A DNA stretch of 64,000 bases from a virus. The notes under the pieces are model-generated. The model saw only the letters and a list, made by a program, of their open reading frames with translations. It did no database searches and was not told the DNA's origin. Below are positions 675 to 60,756 of the stretch, piece by piece. Each line of letters begins with the position of its first letter. Within the stretch, counting starts at the first letter, position 1. Position numbers and translations under genes: made by a program. Where the stretch lies: positions 60,114-124,113 of the IMG/VR virus record IMGVR_UViG_3300017754_002544; one strand, given 5' to 3'.

Positions 675-2321
675 TTATGCTTCGCAAGAAGAACAACTTA
701 GAATATCTCTAGATACTTGTTGAGCTTTATTGACACTTCTTTGATAATACAAAGTCTTCAATCCAAGTTTCCAAGCTTCAATAAATAATGAGTTGATATC
801 TTTTAGTGGAACATCAGGATGTATCATCAAGTTCAATGATTGTGCCTGATCAATCCATCTTTGTCTTTGAGCAGCTTGTTTTACAATTTCCATTTGACTT
901 ATCTCTCCGAATGTTTTAAATACATCCTTTTCAACATCAGATAAAAAGTCTAGGTGTTGAACTGAGCCACCTTTAACCATAATACTCTTCCAAGTATCTG
1001 GGGTATCCTTTCCCTTTTCCTTGAGTAACTTTTCTAGGTATGGATTCTTATAAGAAAACTTACCCTTAGCTAAATCCTTTAAAAAGTAATTGGAATGTAG
1101 TGGTTCAATAGATGGAGATACCTGACCTAAGATAAAACTAGATGAGGTAGTTGGAGCTACTGCAACTCTTGTTGTAAATCTCTCACCATATCCCTCTAGC
1201 ATTTTAGGCTCTCCAAAAAGTAAAGCCAAACTCTTACTTGCTTGTAAACTTCTAAAGTCTATTGTTGTAAATATTTCGGCATTAAGATACATTGCATCCA
1301 TACCTTCAAATGAAATCATCTTAGACTGAAGTAAGCTATGCCATCCAAGAACACCAAGACCAATACTTCTATGTTCCTTTGCAAATCTTACCGCTTTATC
1401 CAAGAAAGGAATTCCACTAGCCTTTTCAATAAATTCTGTATAAACAGCATCAAGGAAATAGGTAAGTATTTCAATCGCATCTGATTCTTTTATCTCGTCC
1501 CAATGAATCAAATTTAGAGAAGATAAACAACAAACAAATGTCTTTTCTAAATCAGTATACTCAATTATTTCGGAGCACATCTGACTATGGTTAATCTTCA
1601 ACCCCTTATCTCTATATACTTTAGGACTTGCATTGTTTACATTATCAGAAAAGAATATGTATGGGAATCCAGTTTCAGATCTCTTCTTATGAATCTTAGC
1701 CATTATAGCTCTTTTGGATTTATCGCCATCAATCATTTCTTGCATCCAATAATCTGGAATTGTAACAGCTAAAGCTAAGTCTTGAATAGGGTGACCTTCT
1801 TCTCTACATTTTAAGAACTCTTCTATATCGGGATGGTCTATGTTTAAGTAGGCAGCAAAGTAACCTCTTCTTGCTTGACCTTGTGTGATAACATTGGTAG
1901 CAGCTTGAAACAATTCCATAAAAGATACTGGCCCATTTGATACTCCATTGTTTTTAATGGATGAACCTCTATGTCTTAGTTTACCAAAGAATCCTGCTGT
2001 TCCTCCACCATGTTTTGTTAGCATACCAATCTCAGCAGCAGCTCTTACAATATCAGATGTATCATCTTGAATATCAATACCATAGCAAGAAATTGGTAGC
2101 CCTCTATCTAATCCAAAGTTCATCCATACTGGAGTAGCTAGAGAGAAATAACCTTTAGCCATATACCCATAGAACTTGTCAGAGAAACCTTGAATACCTA
2201 AAATCTCTTCAGCTCTATTAGCTATTTGTCTAATCCTATCTTCAGGAGATACTCCAGGTAATAGGTAACCTTCATTTAAGAATCTTCTTGATTCTTCATT
2301 AAGCCAATAAAAATCTTCCAT
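675..2321 (-). CDS. nrdA: ribonucleotide reductase class Ia alpha subunit (no ATP cone)
   Basis: PISC, GGGTAG, QMCSEI, VCCLSSLN, APTTSSS, KTLYYQRS motifs and C-terminal CxxC. Confidence 0.95.
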   Translation of the reverse strand: MEDFYWLNEESRRFLNEGYLLPGVSPEDRIRQIANRAEEILGIQGFSDKFYGYMAKGYFSLATPVWMNFGLDRGLPISCYGIDIQDDTSDIVRAAAEIGMLTKHGGGTAGFFGKLRHRGSSIKNNGVSNGPVSFMELFQAATNVITQGQARRGYFAAYLNIDHPDIEEFLKCREEGHPIQDLALAVTIPDYWMQEMIDGDKSKRAIMAKIHKKRSETGFPYIFFSDNVNNASPKVYRDKGLKINHSQMCSEIIEYTDLEKTFVCCLSSLNLIHWDEIKESDAIEILTYFLDAVYTEFIEKASGIPFLDKAVRFAKEHRSIGLGVLGWHSLLQSKMISFEGMDAMYLNAEIFTTIDFRSLQASKSLALLFGEPKMLEGYGERFTTRVAVAPTTSSSFILGQVSPSIEPLHSNYFLKDLAKGKFSYKNPYLEKLLKEKGKDTPDTWKSIMVKGGSVQHLDFLSDVEKDVFKTFGEISQMEIVKQAAQRQRWIDQAQSLNLMIHPDVPLKDINSLFIEAWKLGLKTLYYQRSVNKAQQVSRDILSCSSCEA

Positions 2322-2323
2322 TT

Positions 2324-3301
2324 TTAAAATAATTCTTCTTCGTTAAATACTTTTGTTTTCTTTGCGTAATCAATTGGCTTTTTGTGGAAGAAGTCAGTCA
2401 AGGCTGATGCGTATACTTCTTCTTCCATCCAATTAGTTTTTTCTATAATTTCTTTAGCTACATCAAATGTTTCAGAGAATCCAATCTTAACAAGACACTC
2501 ATTCATTCTTCTTTTGATATAACCTTTAAGAATATCCTCTGATAAGAATTCATTTTCATATCCTTGGAGAATCCAATTAATTAAATTAGATTCAGCATTG
2601 AATGCTTCTTGAACCTCAGATAATATTTTTTCTGATAACTCTTCATCAAATATCTCAGGATACTCAGATCTTATTTGATTGATAATAGCAATACCACCTT
2701 CAGCGTGTAAATTCTCTTCTTTAGATGTATACTGTACAATATTTGACACATCCTTTAAGACACCTCTAAATCTATTGAATCCAAGAATTGTATAGAATTG
2801 AGAGAACAAAGCACAATACTCAGTAAACAATGTAAATAATATTAAAGAGTATACTATGTTTTTGTGGTCATCTTTGTATATTTTATTTACATATTTAGAT
2901 AAGTAGTCTACTCTACCTTTTACAACTGGCTCAGAGAATAGTGTTTCAAAGTCTTCTTCTAAACCAAGCTTAGATAGAATCTCAGCATAGGCTCTAGAAT
3001 GGATTACCTCAACTCCTCCAAACACAGCACCTAAGTCTGATATCTCTGGCTTAGGTAATACTCTACCTATATTGGACCAGTAAGATTTTACAGCAACTTC
3101 TACCTGAGATGTAAGTAGTATCGCTCTTTTTATTACTCCTCTTTCTTCTTCTGTTAATTTAGTCTTGAAGTCTTGGACATCGTTTTTAAAATTGAACTCG
3201 TTGTGAGTCCAATGACTAGCCCACATTGCATCTATTAGTGGGTCTGTTATATGCGAATATTCGAAAGGTTTATAGCTAATTCTTTTGTCAAAAATGCCCA
3301 T
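2324..3301 (-). CDS. nrdB: ribonucleotide reductase class Ia beta subunit
   Basis: EVIHSRAY and EENLH di-iron motifs, DFFHKKPIDY tail, adjacent to nrdA. Confidence 0.95.
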   Translation of the reverse strand: MGIFDKRISYKPFEYSHITDPLIDAMWASHWTHNEFNFKNDVQDFKTKLTEEERGVIKRAILLTSQVEVAVKSYWSNIGRVLPKPEISDLGAVFGGVEVIHSRAYAEILSKLGLEEDFETLFSEPVVKGRVDYLSKYVNKIYKDDHKNIVYSLILFTLFTEYCALFSQFYTILGFNRFRGVLKDVSNIVQYTSKEENLHAEGGIAIINQIRSEYPEIFDEELSEKILSEVQEAFNAESNLINWILQGYENEFLSEDILKGYIKRRMNECLVKIGFSETFDVAKEIIEKTNWMEEEVYASALTDFFHKKPIDYAKKTKVFNEEELF

Positions 3302-3406: not shown

Positions 3407-3850
3407 TTATTTGGTTGCAGACTCTAATGATGGCATAAATACTTCAATAATTTTAGATTCTTTAACAACTGAAACCTCTGGTTCAAATAAGAAACCTCCA
3501 ACCTCACTCATTACAATGTCATATGCATGTTTAGCATCTTTAGCTGATGTAAGATAAGCATAAACTGTCTTCTTATCTTTTCCTGTATCATCATCAGAAA
3601 GTGTATGCTTTACTTTAACTTCAAAGTAATTTCCATAGTCTTCGTCTTCAAAGATGTCACTAAACATAACTCTAGTAATAGCTTCAACTACAAACTCACC
3701 TCTGATAACACTTCCTAGATGTGTGTAGATTTCTTCTTCCGCACTACCAAATGTATATGCGTGAACAAGAAAAGATTCAGATACTCTTTTTAAAGTCCCA
3801 TTGTCAAGACTTTTTGTGTAACGTACTTTACAAATAAATTGATTGTTCAT
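3407..3850 (-). CDS. DUF4494-like protein (Bacteroidota family)
   Basis: F.CKVRY.K...G..K.V.E.FLV.A.TF..AE pattern; ES.I.EVF end. Confidence 0.7.
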   Translation of the reverse strand: MNNQFICKVRYTKSLDNGTLKRVSESFLVHAYTFGSAEEEIYTHLGSVIRGEFVVEAITRVMFSDIFEDEDYGNYFEVKVKHTLSDDDTGKDKKTVYAYLTSAKDAKHAYDIVMSEVGGFLFEPEVSVVKESKIIEVFMPSLESATK

Positions 3851-3893
3851 GTTTTTGGTTTTTAAATTAAGATTACAAATATATACAAATAAA

Positions 3894-4214
3894 TTATTTT
3901 ACTACTAATTTTTTAGAAATATTTTTCTTTACAATTTCAGATATTGATTCTGCTAGATTTAATCCTGAAGATATCAATGGGGCAAATCTCTTTTCGTGGA
4001 AAGCTCCTTCATCTTCTATCAGAACTCCATCTATATTTATTATTGTTACAGGATTAACTATCTCTACTAATTTTATTGCTGGTTCTTCGTACTCTCTTAT
4101 GGTGTATACGACATTTTTTATTGGTAAATTTGGAAATATCTTTTCAAAATTAGGTCTTGTCTTATCGAAATTATCATCAATACATACGACCTTATCTCCT
4201 ACTTTAAACTTCAT
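3894..4214 (-). CDS. hypothetical phage protein
   Basis: MKFKVGDKVVCIDD N-terminus typical of small phage SH3-like proteins. Confidence 0.6.
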   Translation of the reverse strand: MKFKVGDKVVCIDDNFDKTRPNFEKIFPNLPIKNVVYTIREYEEPAIKLVEIVNPVTIINIDGVLIEDEGAFHEKRFAPLISSGLNLAESISEIVKKNISKKLVVK

Positions 4215-4632
4215 AAATCGCAGCTATATAAAGTTTGTACTTTGAGTTTGAAGTGTTGAATTCGTAAAACCTAGATCCTTTATCCCAACCTTGATTTGTT
4301 ATCTCAGTAATCGTAGTTGTTAACCATGTATACATGTGCCTATATTGAGGGTCTATAATACAACTAAATCCGACTTTAGGTTCATCATGTAACTTATTAA
4401 TATTGAGTCCCCCCAATTCTTCAGAAGACCATTCTACAAATTTAACTTTATAGCCACGAAGTATTTTACCATCACCTTCTCTAATTAGCATTATAGGTAA
4501 GTTTGTGATATCACATACATTACAAACATTAGATATCTCACGAGTTCCTTTTACTCTATGTGGCGTAACCTTTAGACAATTCCTACAGAATATATTACCA
4601 GCCTTCCTTTCTTTTTCTTGTGTCTCTTCCAT
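4204..4632 (-). CDS. hypothetical Zn-ribbon protein
   Basis: CxxC...H...CxxC. Confidence 0.55.
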   Translation of the reverse strand: MEETQEKERKAGNIFCRNCLKVTPHRVKGTREISNVCNVCDITNLPIMLIREGDGKILRGYKVKFVEWSSEELGGLNINKLHDEPKVGFSCIIDPQYRHMYTWLTTTITEITNQGWDKGSRFYEFNTSNSKYKLYIAAIYEV

Positions 4633-4799
4633 ACGTTATGTTATTTTTAGCTCTTATATCCTTGTGTGTAAACTGCCAAAACTCCCCTGTCTCATTTATG
4701 ATTATGGTATAAATCGTATCGGTCTCATGACCAAACTCTGTTACTAACCATATAAATCCTGGACCTTTTGGAGTGACTACCTCTATTCTATTTTGTGGT

Positions 4800-5480
4800 T
4801 CAAATACTCTCATTATTTACATCTATTATAATTTTTTCATCTCTAGTTACTAATTTTGTGTATAACTCTATATCTCTTGACCATTCTTGGCCGGTCCAAA
4901 ATTCAAATCCATGATAATTAGATTTATACAAACAACATAGTTCATAACCACCTAATAGATACACATACTCACATCCTAACAATCTAGCTGTCTCACATTC
5001 ATACATCTGTGCAACTGCACCTAATGATAACTTTGGATCAGCATAATCCCATATAAATTGATAAGCTACAAATTGATTACCGAATACTTTATATAAACTT
5101 ATACCAATTAAATCACCATCCCAATATTCAATAACACTACAATCCTTAAATGAGTCTATACTAATATTTCTTTTAAATCCATGATACTGACAATACTTTT
5201 CATATAAATCAATATACTTTTCTCTCTCAGCAACTACATCACCTGATTGTACAATTACCTTTTTAGAAAGTCTTCTAACTGTCTTGGATGGTTTATAGAT
5301 ACTTAAATCAATTCGAGTACTCCTTTCATTATACCATTTACCCTCCCATGGAATCCATCCTTGTTTAAGAGCATCATTACACGACTCTCCTTCCTCTAGG
5401 AGTCCATAAGCACAAGGTACAATGACTTCAATATCACTCACCTTTCCAAATCCTTTTACATGGTCAAATATAACTTTCAT
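4800..5480 (-). CDS. arginyl/leucyl-tRNA-protein transferase (ATE1/Bpt)-like protein
   Basis: L..GW, RIDL..YKPSK..RR, LYEKY, LSLG....YE..AR..G..YVYL.G...C..YK motifs of the ATE family. Confidence 0.7.
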   Translation of the reverse strand: MKVIFDHVKGFGKVSDIEVIVPCAYGLLEEGESCNDALKQGWIPWEGKWYNERSTRIDLSIYKPSKTVRRLSKKVIVQSGDVVAEREKYIDLYEKYCQYHGFKRNISIDSFKDCSVIEYWDGDLIGISLYKVFGNQFVAYQFIWDYADPKLSLGAVAQMYECETARLLGCEYVYLLGGYELCCLYKSNYHGFEFWTGQEWSRDIELYTKLVTRDEKIIIDVNNESI

Positions 5481-5491
5481 ATCTATAAATT

Positions 5492-5870
5492 AAAAAACCC
5501 TAGCAGTGTCTATTGATCAGGTAGTCTTACTAGGGGTTGTTACTAGTTATACAGCTCACCGCTTTCCTAGTAACGAAAAGACCAAGGCTGGTGCGCTGTG
5601 CTTACACTTGGGAAGCGTCCTTGGTACTTGACCTATAGAATAGAATCTATAGGGTTAATATCATGGCAACGGATCACCATGAGGTCCCAGTATTTGCATA
5701 CTGGTGGGGTAAGTTAACGCTGATTACGGGTTCAGCGTTAGAAACCTTTGTAGGCTCCAGACCATAAGGTAAAGAACAAAAGTTATAAATAGATAAAGTG
5801 CCTGATCCATGTACCACCGTGGGCACTTTTAGTTTATTCGGTTTCCGTTTCATGGTCATCTACTTATAAC
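5492..5870 (-). ncRNA. large multi-hairpin structured RNA of unknown family
   Basis: GC-richer intergenic stretch with ~10 consecutive helices, loop-loop complementarity and a terminal hairpin plus U-run. Confidence 0.65.
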
Positions 5871-5886
5871 TAGCAACTAGGGTAGA

Positions 5887-6300
5887 TTATTTATTTTTTA
5901 ATCTTTCCCTATATCTTTTAGTCATCATATTATTAATTGCTTTGCATTCATCACATCTACACCCCCTATCATAAGCTCCTTTACTTGGATGTTTTTTTAG
6001 TTTTTCAAAATCTATTCCTTCTAAAAGTTTAATTCTACCTTTATCAATGCCATCTTGCCAATTTTCTTTTGGACTCCCTAGAAATAAATGTTTCGGATTC
6101 ACGCACATTCTATTATCACAAGTATGACATACATATAAACCTTCAGGAATTTCACCATGGTGTATCATATATGATACTCTGTGAGAATCTATAACTTTAC
6201 CATTAAGTTTAAATGCTCCATAACCAGTTTTACCTCTAGAACATGCTGTCCATAACCAACAAGTTTCAGTTTTATTTACTTTGTCAAAAAACCTTTTCAT
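5887..6300 (-). CDS. HNH homing endonuclease with C-terminal GCRC-xx-C Zn motif
   Basis: CWLW...GYG...HRVSY...[16 protein letters not shown]. Confidence 0.9.
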
Positions 6301-6390
6301 ATATTTATTTTTGTAGCAACTAATATACGAACTTTTATTTAGAAATCAAGAACAAAAGAGAGAGTATTTCATCTCTCTTAAGCTTTACTC

Positions 6391-6473
6391 TAACCGAGGG
6401 CAGGACTCGAACCTACAACGTGCAACCATTCATCAGGGTAAGATACCGTTTCCTTATTACGCACTACCTAGTT
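6391..6473 (-). ncRNA. tRNA-like element without a canonical D/anticodon arrangement
   Basis: acceptor-like AACTAGG/CCTCGGTT and T-arm GTAGG-TTCGAGT-CCTGC. Confidence 0.5.
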
Positions 6474-6477
6474 AAGT

Positions 6478-6690
6478 TTCCCACTCTGAGATTACAAGTG
6501 AGTAGTCATATCGGTTTGTTTCCTTTCAAACAACCTGCTGGGCATCCCCGTTAAAAAAAGTCAACACTACTGGGAGGAGGTGTGTCGTGCTCCTTTATTC
6601 CCATGAGACTGGCGTTTAAGGATGTCCAGTCTAATACCCTATCAAGTTTAAATGAGACATTGACAAGTCTGCTGAGTATCTCTTACTCAT
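6478..6690 (-). ncRNA. structured RNA between tRNA-like elements
   Basis: helices TGAGTA/TACTCA, AGACTGG/CCAGTCT, TGGGA-GGAG/CTCC-TCCCA; loop CATCCT complementary to downstream GGGATG. Confidence 0.4.
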
Positions 6691-6692
6691 TG

Positions 6693-6808
6693 TTATGAGA
6701 ATAGGACTCGAACCTACACCTCACGGCAGGATTTAATGTATATTCTTAGGACATGACCCCCTACCTTTTACCACCCACCATGTGCTCTACCAATTAAGCT
6801 ACCTCATT
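6693..6808 (-). tRNA. tRNA-like gene with a 44-nt insertion in the anticodon loop (identity unclear)
   Basis: normal acceptor, D arm GCTT-AATTGGTA-GAGC, CATGG/CCGTG stem, T arm GTAGG-TTCGAGT-CCTAT; loop is 51 nt instead of 7. Confidence 0.6.
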
Positions 6809-6975
6809 AAATTTGGTAGAGATTTGAACACCAACGCATGATCACCCATACGTCTCGTTTCTTTTGTTTTAGGCACTCTACCTTTGCAAGTTCGTCTTAC
6901 CTTGCGCCACCATTCGTGGAATTGCCCGAAATCCCAATGGTTGTCGTTGTACTATCAGACATCAAACGACTGCTG

Positions 6976-7050
6976 TGAGCCTGGAGAGATTCGAACTCAT
7001 CAATCTACATTTTAGAAGAATGTTGCATTATCCAGTTATGCTACAGGCTC
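6976..7050 (-). tRNA. tRNA-Arg (TCT)
   Basis: GAGCCTG/CAGGCTC acceptor, GCAT/ATGC D stem, ACATT-CTTCTAA-AATGT anticodon arm, TTCGAAT loop. Confidence 0.88.
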
Positions 7051-7129
7051 GAAAAACTACCCCATCATTTTTAAAATACAAGCAAAAATAAATGATAGGA
7101 TAGTTTTATTTGTTGACCTTAAGTTAAAT

Positions 7130-7576
7130 TTATTTTAAACTAGCTGTCTTTATTCTAGTTTTTTTCTTAGGCTTATCTTCTACGATAATCTCCTTGATAT
7201 TTTCCTTAGCATCTTCTTCGTCCATTTCTTCAGTAGAAATAGTTAGACCTGAATCAACATTTTGCTTATGTTGTTCCATTAATCTAATTGTCATATCAGA
7301 TACATTAGATCCAAGACCTGTGACAGTTTGTTGAATCATATTCAATACGCCTTGAATTTGGTGTAAGTTTCTACCTTGAATGTGGCAAAAGTATATGAAT
7401 GAATTAAATAAACCACCAGGTATTGTTACCATAGAATCTTTACTATAGGTTTGTTTAAAGTATCCACCTTTATCCAATTCTTCAAAAAGTTCATCATACT
7501 TCTTTTCCATTTCTTGATTCTCTTGTAGCATAGCTTCCTTAAGCTGCTCTTCTGTCATTTGTTCTTTGTTTTCCAT
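7130..7576 (-). CDS. hypothetical protein
   Basis: 148-aa ORF with upstream TAnnTTTG (7591-7598). Confidence 0.6.
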   Translation of the reverse strand: MENKEQMTEEQLKEAMLQENQEMEKKYDELFEELDKGGYFKQTYSKDSMVTIPGGLFNSFIYFCHIQGRNLHQIQGVLNMIQQTVTGLGSNVSDMTIRLMEQHKQNVDSGLTISTEEMDEEDAKENIKEIIVEDKPKKKTRIKTASLK

Positions 7577-7609
7577 TTTTTAATTTTTACCAAATCTAAT
7601 AATAATAAA

Positions 7610-8353
7610 TTAATTCTCAAAATATTTTTTGTAAAATTTGTAATACTCGTTTATTTCTGAAACAGTTTTATCGCATTTATCAAAAAATTTGTTAGCCCTC
7701 TCAATTGAGTAAGGAGTTTCAATACTAACTATGTCACCTGTCAGTCTTAGTGGATGACTCTCTGATCCATTACCTTTCCTATCTAACATAACAACTCCGG
7801 ACCAAACAACTTCATTGCCTTCTTCTATTAAGGAGTGAGAATACATAGTTGTTTGTTGGTAGTCTTCACTAGCATAGAAGTCTTTCTTGTTTTTTATATT
7901 GCCAGTTTTAAAATCTATAACTTCAACTTGACCCTTAGCTAATCCATCTAGTTCTGCATCATCGTTAACACCTATTCTAGTTCTATCTATGAATCCTTGA
8001 ATGACATATCCTAATGGTCTATGAATAACTATCTCTCTTTCATACTCGCAATTTTCTGGTCTACCTACTTTCATAAGTGTTTCGATATCAAAAGTAGATA
8101 GTTCACTATATTCATCAACACCTTTTTCAAACCACTCTCCCACTACTGAACCAAAGTGAGTGAAGATATTTCCTGGATCTTTTATGCCTAAGAAATAGTT
8201 CTCTATATAGTCTCCTTTATAGGTAGGGTTATTCCAACTTTCTATTTGACTATAGCTTATTTTAGGAAAGCCTTCAAACTTTTTGAATTTATTTTCTCCA
8301 CTAGGATTATCGTATACCCTAGGCAATTCTATTTTAGATTTTTTAGATGTCAT
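7610..8353 (-). CDS. PD-(D/E)XK family exonuclease
   Basis: ISYSQ, GFIDR, VIDFKTG, QTTMY motifs. Confidence 0.8.
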   Translation of the reverse strand: MTSKKSKIELPRVYDNPSGENKFKKFEGFPKISYSQIESWNNPTYKGDYIENYFLGIKDPGNIFTHFGSVVGEWFEKGVDEYSELSTFDIETLMKVGRPENCEYEREIVIHRPLGYVIQGFIDRTRIGVNDDAELDGLAKGQVEVIDFKTGNIKNKKDFYASEDYQQTTMYSHSLIEEGNEVVWSGVVMLDRKGNGSESHPLRLTGDIVSIETPYSIERANKFFDKCDKTVSEINEYYKFYKKYFEN

Positions 8354-59901: not shown

Positions 59902-60756
59902 ATGGCAACTAATATTAACTTTAATAGCACGTTAGGTATTGTTAAAAACAGTATTGTTATAACTAGTCAAGGAGGTATAGATCCAGATGCTCAGGCTTTT
60001 ATAACAGCTGCTGGAATAACAGATGCTACTCAAATTACTGCTGTCAATCAACTAGTATTAGATCTTAAATCATATAATATTTGGGATAACTTACGTGTTG
60101 TTTATCCATTTGTTGGAGGTACTGCAACTTCTCATAAATTTAACCTTAAAGATCCTCAAGACACAGACGCAGCTTATAGAATTTCATTTAATGGCGGATG
60201 GACACATAGTAATACAGGAATACAACCAAATGGAACAAACGCATGGGGAAATACAAGATATTATCCAGGATTTGTACCAGGTTACTCTATTACAAGTGAT
60301 TCTGTTCATATATCTTTTTACTCTAGAACAGATTCTCAAAGCGGTAATGATCTTGGAGGTGCTAGTAATAATACATATATTAGAGGTTTATATTTTATGA
60401 CAAAATATACAGATGGTACAAGATATATGAATGCGTTTGGTTCTGGTAGTGTATTGACTACTGGGTATCCTTCTACAACAGGATTTTTTGTATTAAGAAG
60501 AGATAATTCTGCTACAACTATAAAAACTAGTAGAAATGGAGTTAATACTTCTATTGCTCAAAACCTACCACTTTTTGGAAATTATATTGCAGCAATTTCT
60601 GCTATCAACTTAGGACCAGGAACTAATACAAGAACATTTTTTTCAAATAGAGAGTTAGCATTTGTTTCTATGGGACCAGGCTTAACAGATACACAAGCAA
60701 GTAATTTCAATACAGCAGTACAAACATTTCAAACAACTTTAGGACGTAACGTATGA
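59902..60756 (+). CDS. putative virion fibre (LamG-like) protein
   Basis: DPDAQAFITAAGIT...YPFVGG...FQTTLGRNV. Confidence 0.55.
   Translation: MATNINFNSTLGIVKNSIVITSQGGIDPDAQAFITAAGITDATQITAVNQLVLDLKSYNIWDNLRVVYPFVGGTATSHKFNLKDPQDTDAAYRISFNGGWTHSNTGIQPNGTNAWGNTRYYPGFVPGYSITSDSVHISFYSRTDSQSGNDLGGASNNTYIRGLYFMTKYTDGTRYMNAFGSGSVLTTGYPSTTGFFVLRRDNSATTIKTSRNGVNTSIAQNLPLFGNYIAAISAINLGPGTNTRTFFSNRELAFVSMGPGLTDTQASNFNTAVQTFQTTLGRNV

Follow-up and report, generated by a model that had tools for sequence, protein, structure and literature searches.

Which RNA, if any, is encoded by a stretch of some 400 nt that lies without a credible gene beside the transfer RNA (tRNA) genes of a lake phage, and what might it do there? 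The stretch occupies positions 5486-5883 on the minus strand of a window of 64,000 nt (positions 60,114 to 124,113 of IMG/VR record IMGVR_UViG_3300017754_002544; all coordinates given here refer to this window). The source record is complete, 124 kb long and carries terminal repeats. A sequence-only reading had described the stretch as one ornate non-coding RNA (ncRNA) of ~380 nt. We found that it is a real ncRNA cassette absent from Rfam, not one ornate RNA: positions 5486-5883 are a chain of four independently evolving small-RNA modules, which other phages carry apart and in other combinations. Judged from sequence comparison, the cassette is most likely best read as a chain of small RNAs linked to the tRNA array, the best-understood part of which would be a toxin-less, diverged copy of the hairpin that serves as antitoxin of the bacterial toxin AbiF, acting as an anti-defence decoy. 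The modules and their helices are listed below in 5' to 3' order of the minus strand.

5782..5870, minus strand: module A, a pseudoknotted RNA with a 13-bp outer helix (5858-5870 with 5782-5794; 12 Watson-Crick pairs and one G-U), an inner helix AAAGUGCC/GGCACUUU (5822-5829 with 5795-5802) and a pairing of 5851-5857 with 5804-5811 that crosses the inner helix
5716..5780, minus strand: module B, an element of ~65 nt with the terminal hairpin AACGCUGA/UCAGCGUU (5732-5739 with 5716-5723) and its 8-nt loop ACCCGUAA
5662..5711, minus strand: module C, two hairpins, H1 (CCAGUAU/AUACUGG, 5698-5704 with 5687-5693, tetraloop) and H2 (CAUGG/CCAUG, 5677-5681 with 5662-5666, conserved 10-nt loop)
5492-5653, minus strand: module D, the 3' ~170 nt with hairpins H3-H6, belonging to a phage RNA family that is widespread and uncatalogued
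5632..5653, minus strand: H3, first hairpin of family D (CCUAUAGA/UCUAUAGG, 5646-5653 with 5632-5639)
5575..5629, minus strand: H4, hairpin resembling the AbiF leader or antitoxin, with outer stem ACCAAGG/CCUUGGU (5619-5625 with 5581-5587), inner stem (5614-5617 with 5594-5597), 3' bulge and short U-run
5539..5574, minus strand: H5, with a conserved internal loop (GUUACUAG/CUAGUAAC, 5567-5574 with 5539-5546)
5492..5536, minus strand: H6, terminator hairpin with outer stem CCCUAG/CUAGGG (5530-5535 with 5498-5503), conserved internal loop, apical palindrome UGAUCA (5514-5519) and U-run (5492-5497)

All helices named in the sequence-only reading were found on the minus strand where it had placed them. 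A 402-nt stretch covering the cassette folds at -122.6 kcal/mol, compared with -92.9 +/- 4.8 kcal/mol in 100 shuffles (z = -6.2), none of which folded as well. Together with the covariation in the 3' 170 nt described below and the lack of a credible gene, this supports the earlier description of the stretch as non-coding and structured, and we hold it highly probable that it is a structured, modular RNA. The earlier statement that no family could be assigned was borne out by Rfam, which gave no match to the stretch on the sense strand, neither in the whole window at gathering scores nor in 4500-8000 and 5480-5890 at E ≤ 10. Two long-range pairings had also been proposed. For the first, the supposed loop ACAGCGCACC is not a loop, as its AGCG is bound locally to CGCU, within a helix that shows covariation among relatives, and the place of its partner GGUGAGCUGU is taken in relatives by unrelated sequence of variable length. 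For the second, the complementarity of GAUCAGG and CCUGAUC exists as described; the pairing is not conserved, since CUGAUCA is kept in family members without the 5' module, and CAUGGAUC has a nearer, invariant partner, GACCAUG.

Evidence for an RNA under selection comes from module D. Relatives were gathered by two degenerate motif scans of IMG/VR, whose counts are lower bounds and whose matches were mostly confirmed by nhmmer, and by a third scan anchored on H5, which was complete. In this way 113 distinct full-length copies were retrieved from viral contigs; the copy in the window was first recovered by nhmmer from its relatives and is the only one in this phage genome. RNAalifold predicted 33 base pairs from 65 distinct copies, 22 of them with compensatory changes. 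After two pairs had been added by hand (alignment A1, the same number of copies), 96.0% of the cells were paired, in comparison to 79.8% in shuffles and 32–44% when the partners were slid, and the covariation that the sequence-only reading had named as a check was found: 22 of 35 pairs changed on both sides. This applies to 5/6 pairs in helix 1 (H3) and to 5/8 pairs in helices 5 and 6 (H5); H6 corresponds to helices 7 and 8. The covariation score of 0.485 was reached by none of 500 shuffles (0.183) and fell to 0.078 or less with slid partners. G-U pairs are frequent on the minus strand (one pair, for example, is G-U in 34 copies, G-C in 22 and A-U in 6), which indicates selection on this strand's RNA. 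A covariance model of the family matched window positions 5491-5629 (minus strand) with 119.4 bits and E 4e-23 over model positions 1-138 of 138, the window being one of its 65 training sequences. The family model R1 holds 16 base pairs only, because its alignment is one base off in H4; covariation was taken from A1.

Elsewhere, family D starts just after a tRNA or a promoter box and usually ends at its own intrinsic terminator. A tRNA or transfer-messenger RNA (tmRNA) lies at most 60 nt upstream of 18 of the 113 copies and within 300 nt of 40. In 46 copies the box TAnnTTTG, which we take to be the -7 promoter element of Bacteroidota, is located 15–110 nt upstream. In two relatives (L106, L122) the position of H3 is taken by the 3' end of a tRNA, and the tip of H5 holds variable inserts with expansions up to ~45 nt. 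Three loci carry a second module D in tandem, diverged or truncated and with a non-palindromic H6 loop (L067 2786-2894, L068 2882-2986, L050 2852-2988). We also noticed a second phage RNA type of ~125 nt, which starts with an H4-like tip motif, is located between tRNA genes and is absent from Rfam (L227, L243, L294, L303, L238, L278, L284, L285, L292, L313).

H4 is the part of module D for which a cellular counterpart could be identified. When one genome per prokaryote species was scanned for the tip motif of this hairpin, at least 120 cellular loci were obtained, mostly from Bacteroidota and Chlorobi. At these sites the hairpin stands right after a TTTG box, ends in a U-run and is followed by an open reading frame (ORF) of ~300 aa. 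All seven ORFs tested encode proteins of the abortive-infection family Abi_2 (AbiD/AbiF; PF07751, E 1e-51 to 1e-58), 4/4 match PADLOC AbiD, and one matches the "Abi family protein" of PDB 8VZ6 at E 6e-40. Among the matches listed, no fewer than 64 of 121 cellular sites have the start of an Abi_2 gene at most 260 nt downstream, a lower bound because several apparent misses begin with the same N-terminal residues; nine more sites lie too near the end of their locus. For viral loci the corresponding numbers are 1/94 and 0/69, that is one site in 163. Starting from the gene instead, we found Abi_2 in 8 of 121 Bacteroidota genomes, with the hairpin at 7 of the 8 genes and with variable tips. In three cellular cases (L370, L390 and the second site of L426) a hairpin of this type precedes the R-subunit gene of a type I restriction system and not Abi_2.

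According to the available text of recent work (bioRxiv 10.1101/2025.04.15.648962; PMC12737573; PMC13064643), AbiF is an RNase toxin of the HEPN type, and the ncRNA encoded upstream binds it, blocks its active site and neutralizes it as a type III antitoxin, be it in cis or in trans. A covariance model (R2) trained solely on 56 host leaders finds H4 in phage relatives with scores of 19.9–43.8 bits (L076 43.8, L081 30.7, L087 30.4, L065 24.2). Aligned to R2, the H4 of the window keeps the base, inner stem, 3' bulge and U-run of the AbiF leader, the same layout as in the 56 aligned host leaders. We consider it likely that the H4 of the window derives from such a leader hairpin. An Abi_2 gene was found neither downstream of H4 nor anywhere else in the complete 124-kb phage genome, and for this reason we call H4 AbiFr-like, after the cis-encoded AbiF antitoxin AbiFr, and not a member of a toxin-antitoxin pair; it is also the lack of this gene that suggests a decoy. 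The Rfam abiF motif (RF03085) matches neither the window at E ≤ 10 nor a host Abi_2 leader. The literature searched contained no paper describing phage-borne AbiFr copies, which does not exclude that one exists.

The second feature of module D that calls for an explanation is the loop of H6. The H5-anchored scan yielded 42 family tails, 41 of which have, in the apex of H6, a core of no fewer than 6 nt that is complementary to itself. The core is of three kinds (UGAUCA 38 times, UAGCUA twice, UGGCCA once), and the scan anchored on H4 added a fourth, AGACGUCU, and further cases of UGGCCA. Symmetrical changes that keep a loop self-complementary cannot help the hairpin itself and thus point either to loop-loop pairing between two copies or to a palindromic DNA site. 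We think that the H6 loop probably lets two RNA copies pair loop to loop. AbiF is described as a symmetric dimer with one RNA bound per monomer in the available text of PMC12737573, and a dimeric decoy would fit this arrangement. Kissing of the H4 and H6 loops via GAUC was rejected, as variants of H4 with GAAC keep the H6 loop unchanged.

From these observations the following course of events can be proposed. The RNA would be transcribed together with the tRNA array and in tRNA direction; its 5' end would be freed by the tRNA-processing enzymes and its 3' end set by the H6 terminator. In the infected cell H4 would bind the host's AbiF RNase and replace or supplement the antitoxin RNA of the host, such that the toxin stays off after the phage has shut off host transcription. 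Two copies joined by their H6 loops could present two H4 hairpins to the dimeric toxin. This would be RNA antitoxin mimicry of the kind attributed to pseudo-ToxI of phage PhiTE against ToxIN, for which PMC3475682, as far as its available text goes, provides the precedent; in the corresponding part of PMC13064643, a hairpin that phage sk1 carries in its cos site is reported to inhibit AbiF. We put the probability that the H4-bearing RNA works as a phage decoy antitoxin against AbiF at roughly 0.5. An extended version, in which family-D RNAs would be purpose-built bivalent AbiF inhibitors by virtue of H6 dimers while modules A, B and C would be decoys or sponges for other RNA-controlled host defences, we regard as rather unlikely.

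The remaining three modules may be further decoys, or elements for stabilization and processing. Homologues of module A were found at four loci (L318, L484, L567, L464). The outer helix and one pair of the inner helix change on both sides, the strands of the pseudoknot are invariant in 5/5 sequences, and in 3 of the 4 homologues a tRNA-like gene starts where the module ends. A pattern scan for the inner helix returned mostly generic terminators, with true homologues at 3 of 114 loci. Module C is located upstream of module D in three relatives (L081, L076, L269), with compensatory changes in its stems.

Module B is common to Bacillus phages of the SPbeta/phi3T type (20 records; 21 viral loci), forms in two loci (L012, L019) a solitary element with a promoter-like box on one side and a terminator on the other, and has a stem that covaries in L132, L108 and L107, preceding module D in the first two of these. 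In SPbeta and phi3T the unannotated yonN-yonK region of 0.7–1.7 kb (L001 1177-2859, L002 2177-2894) contains module B followed by a match to the DUF3800-VIII RNA and further hairpins. An interpretation of the SPbeta matches as phage introns was rejected, as they fall into this intergenic region beside the DUF3800-VIII match. A 14-mer of module B was present in 11 Bacteroidota and 7 Bacillota genomes, with 401 genomes sampled from each group, and the reversed control in 2 and 2. All 18 exact sites in these 802 sampled genomes lack the hairpin context and are mostly located in coding DNA; they look like chance, and cellular copies of the module were discarded as a candidate.

How the cassette is embedded in the genome can be seen from two lake runs, X5 and X8: their contigs span 5486-5883, with 3 and 7 differences, and depart from the window beyond either end of this block. 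In the window the stop codon of an HNH endonuclease ORF (5887..6300) lies upstream on the minus strand and the start of an ATE_C-like ORF (4800..5480) downstream. In the contigs of X5 and X8 the T-arm of a tRNA directly abuts base 5883 (these are loose contig ends), and the block is followed by the start of a gene equal to the window ORF 4204..4632, not by the ATE-like gene. The same block between different genes on both sides marks the RNA as a discrete cassette, with the HNH gene and the ATE-like gene as variable neighbours. At its 5' border one further feature was identified:

5873..5883, minus strand: remnant 3' end of a tRNA-like gene, comprising the last two T-stem bases, the 7-nt 3' strand of the acceptor and the discriminator

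Positions 5875-5881 of this remnant are the exact complement of 6467-6473, the 5' strand of the acceptor of the same tRNA-like gene, and the HNH insertion parts the remnant from this partner. Within the region 5884-6473 of the minus strand, the HNH homing-endonuclease gene (5887..6300, PF13392) appears to have been inserted into the tRNA-like gene, and the X5 and X8 contigs lack this insertion. A group I intron with the HNH gene inside it was dropped as a candidate: there is no Rfam intron match, and the block is present without the HNH gene in other runs. A second T-arm with a less well matching 3' strand is located at 6391-6416, just before the HNH gene. That the RNA lies next to a tRNA cluster, as had been noted before, holds true: a tRNA-Arg(UCU) is located at 6975-7050 and an interrupted tRNA at 6693-6808, and these two (6976-7050 and 6693-6808) are the only Rfam matches in the window. 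The interrupted one, on the minus strand, scores 40.4 bits, and its anticodon loop is enlarged by an insertion of 51 nt; ARAGORN makes no call here. This could be a tRNA with an intron or a mimic of a tRNA. The gene-free regions 6310-6690 and 6810-6975 of the minus strand, located between the tRNAs, contain tRNA-like T-arms and hairpins and are probably further small-RNA modules of the island.

Downstream of the cassette, the ATE-like gene (4800-5480, minus strand) encodes 226 aa with the C-terminal domain of arginine-tRNA-protein transferase (PF04377, E 1e-7). The protein is conserved in at least 80 viral contigs and absent from the near-identical relatives in X5 and X8. With the RNA as query, no more than its 3' part was recovered from 80 loci encoding relatives of this protein (51–79% identity), namely in 13 of them.

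Several observations weigh against a decoy antitoxin. The tip of H4 in the window is changed and contains a 4-nt insertion absent from the other 64 copies of A1. A search with R2 of 128 kb including the window gave no match to the window's H4 at E ≤ 1; with filters off and on the 411-nt region alone, H4 was the best match and in the right place, with a weak score of 14.8 bits. The leaders used to train R2 had been collected by a fixed tip motif, so that the model has a bias against tips that vary, and the leaders gathered by gene do vary at this point. Hairpins of the H4 type are often solitary in phage contigs, preceding a U-run where genes end, and hairpin plus U-run could serve simply as a terminator in phages. 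The palindrome of H6 is equally palindromic in DNA. Modules A, B and C, and thereby three out of four, are left unexplained by such a decoy, and module B is common to Bacillus phages, whose hosts lack the Bacteroidota hairpin. The Bacteroidota host of the phage is itself something we infer. Finally, none of the runs listed as holding the RNA stretch is on record as RNA; run X20, labelled RNA-Seq, is marked as probably DNA, and its 267-nt contig over 5709-5883 is uninformative on expression.

Part of these observations would also suit stable RNAs that accompany the tRNA array and have another function, like rnaC and rnaD of phage T4, the likeness of H4 to the AbiF leader then being due to shared ancestry or to reuse of a terminator hairpin. 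Such an origin is possible, if somewhat doubtful. By annotation T4 has the same layout, with a tRNA cluster, a homing endonuclease gene, a tRNA-Arg and, after it, a pair of small stable RNAs; no defence gene is connected with modules A, B and C, and both the diverged tip of the window's H4 and the solitary hairpins before U-runs agree with it. Against it, model R1 finds no match in the rnaC/rnaD locus of T4, the conservation of tip and bulge between hosts and phages far exceeds what termination needs, and the hairpin in cells goes with a single gene family. A further alternative, in which the whole stretch folds as one large RNA and builds, like GOLLD or ROOL, a higher-order particle of RNA alone, would agree with the adjoining tRNAs, with a true GOLLD at the same gene in a relative and with the self-complementary H6 loop; homo-oligomers of GOLLD, ROOL and OLE are described in PMC12286853, and RNAs below 200 nt are reported to be able to form cages and filaments in bioRxiv 10.64898/2026.07.01.735769, in both cases as far as the available text of the source goes. 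Yet Rfam matches are lacking, including those to GOLLD and ROOL, the modules are found apart and in other orders, and no conserved pairing between modules was detected, both proposed long-range pairings being unconserved. The description as one ornate RNA thus had to be given up, and we consider a particle of this kind improbable.

The position of the terminator hairpin, 12 nt upstream of the start codon of the ATE-like gene, could also suggest a cis-acting leader of this gene, that is an attenuator or a riboswitch. In most of the 80 relatives, however, the gene overlaps the upstream ORF and has no leader, which excludes such a function; moreover module D may be separated from the gene by another one (L077, L087), and in X5 and X8 a different gene follows the same block. 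We therefore judge a leader to be very improbable. Least credible of all is that the stretch encodes the 61-aa protein of 5674..5859, which had been named as a finding that would speak against an ncRNA. The frame is open and starts with ATG, but the product has no Pfam match, and homologues differ by paired compensatory changes. The frame crosses three RNA modules that other phages hold separately, and 1-nt indels are present in relatives, making a coding function very unlikely.

If a decoy antitoxin is indeed encoded, and if Bacteroidota phages widely carry toxin-less AbiF antitoxin hairpins, this would be a natural RNA-only anti-defence strategy at large scale, for which pseudo-ToxI, a single laboratory case, and a single phage hairpin, that at the sk1 cos site, are the basis so far. 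Some of the small RNAs in phage tRNA clusters, for long unexplained, would moreover obtain a function for the first time. AbiF, as review accounts put it in their available text, has recently been shown to be an RNA-controlled toxin and is a likely ancestor of Cas13. Should the bivalent inhibitors be real, phage tRNA islands would be anti-defence RNA arsenals built by module shuffling. The H6 loop, which changes yet is always self-complementary, would be a clean natural case for RNA dimerization.

Among known systems, the DUF3800-VIII RNA (RF03075) of SPbeta and phi3T is connected to the cassette by module B, which lies directly 5' of its match in SPbeta-type phages. DUF3800-associated motifs are characterized in the available text of PMC5737381 as terminator-ended RNAs of unknown function. 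A link of the cassette to DUF3800 was rejected: the window has no DUF3800-VIII match and the phage genome no DUF3800 gene. The species 1 and 2 stable RNAs of T4, rnaC and rnaD, occupy the same position as the cassette: they close a phage tRNA cluster, are encoded on the strand of the tRNAs and lie next to a homing endonuclease gene and a tRNA-Arg. To our knowledge no function has been assigned to them, and homology was rejected, since R1 gave no match in the T4 locus (L224) at E ≤ 1 and no likeness of sequence or structure was detected. GOLLD and ROOL are likewise phage-borne, structured RNAs adjacent to tRNAs, which assemble through RNA-RNA contacts according to the text available from PMC12286853. 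In contrast to the chain of separable modules in the window, they are much larger single folds. Neither GOLLD (RF02032), ROOL nor any other large RNA of Rfam matched in the window, while the same search found GOLLD in the relative L092 with 317.5 bits. In this relative a tmRNA (74 bits) and the full GOLLD flank the ATE_C-like gene, the two sites being 2283-2701 (plus strand) and 3721-4131 (minus strand).

A parallel for the proposed function is pseudo-ToxI of PhiTE, likewise a phage RNA that resembles a type III antitoxin of the host, which the available text of PMC3475682 interprets as an escape from abortive infection. Its toxin, ToxN, belongs to a family other than the HEPN Abi_2 proteins; ToxI consists of repeats in tandem, in contrast to the single hairpin that here forms part of a composite RNA; and the PhiTE case is experimental, the present one a prediction from sequence. 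The closest structural parallel is AbiFr/RCd22, the cis-encoded ncRNA antitoxins of AbiF that belong to the type III toxin-antitoxin systems (PbAbiF-ncRNA complex, PDB 8VZ6). Unlike these, the phage copy is accompanied by no toxin gene, either beside it or elsewhere in the genome, forms part of a larger RNA with multiple hairpins and, in the window, contains a 4-nt insertion in its tip. The H4 hairpins of the phage family nevertheless have the same base, inner stem, 3' bulge, tip motif and U-run, and the proteins encoded downstream of the host hairpins are homologous to chain A of 8VZ6.

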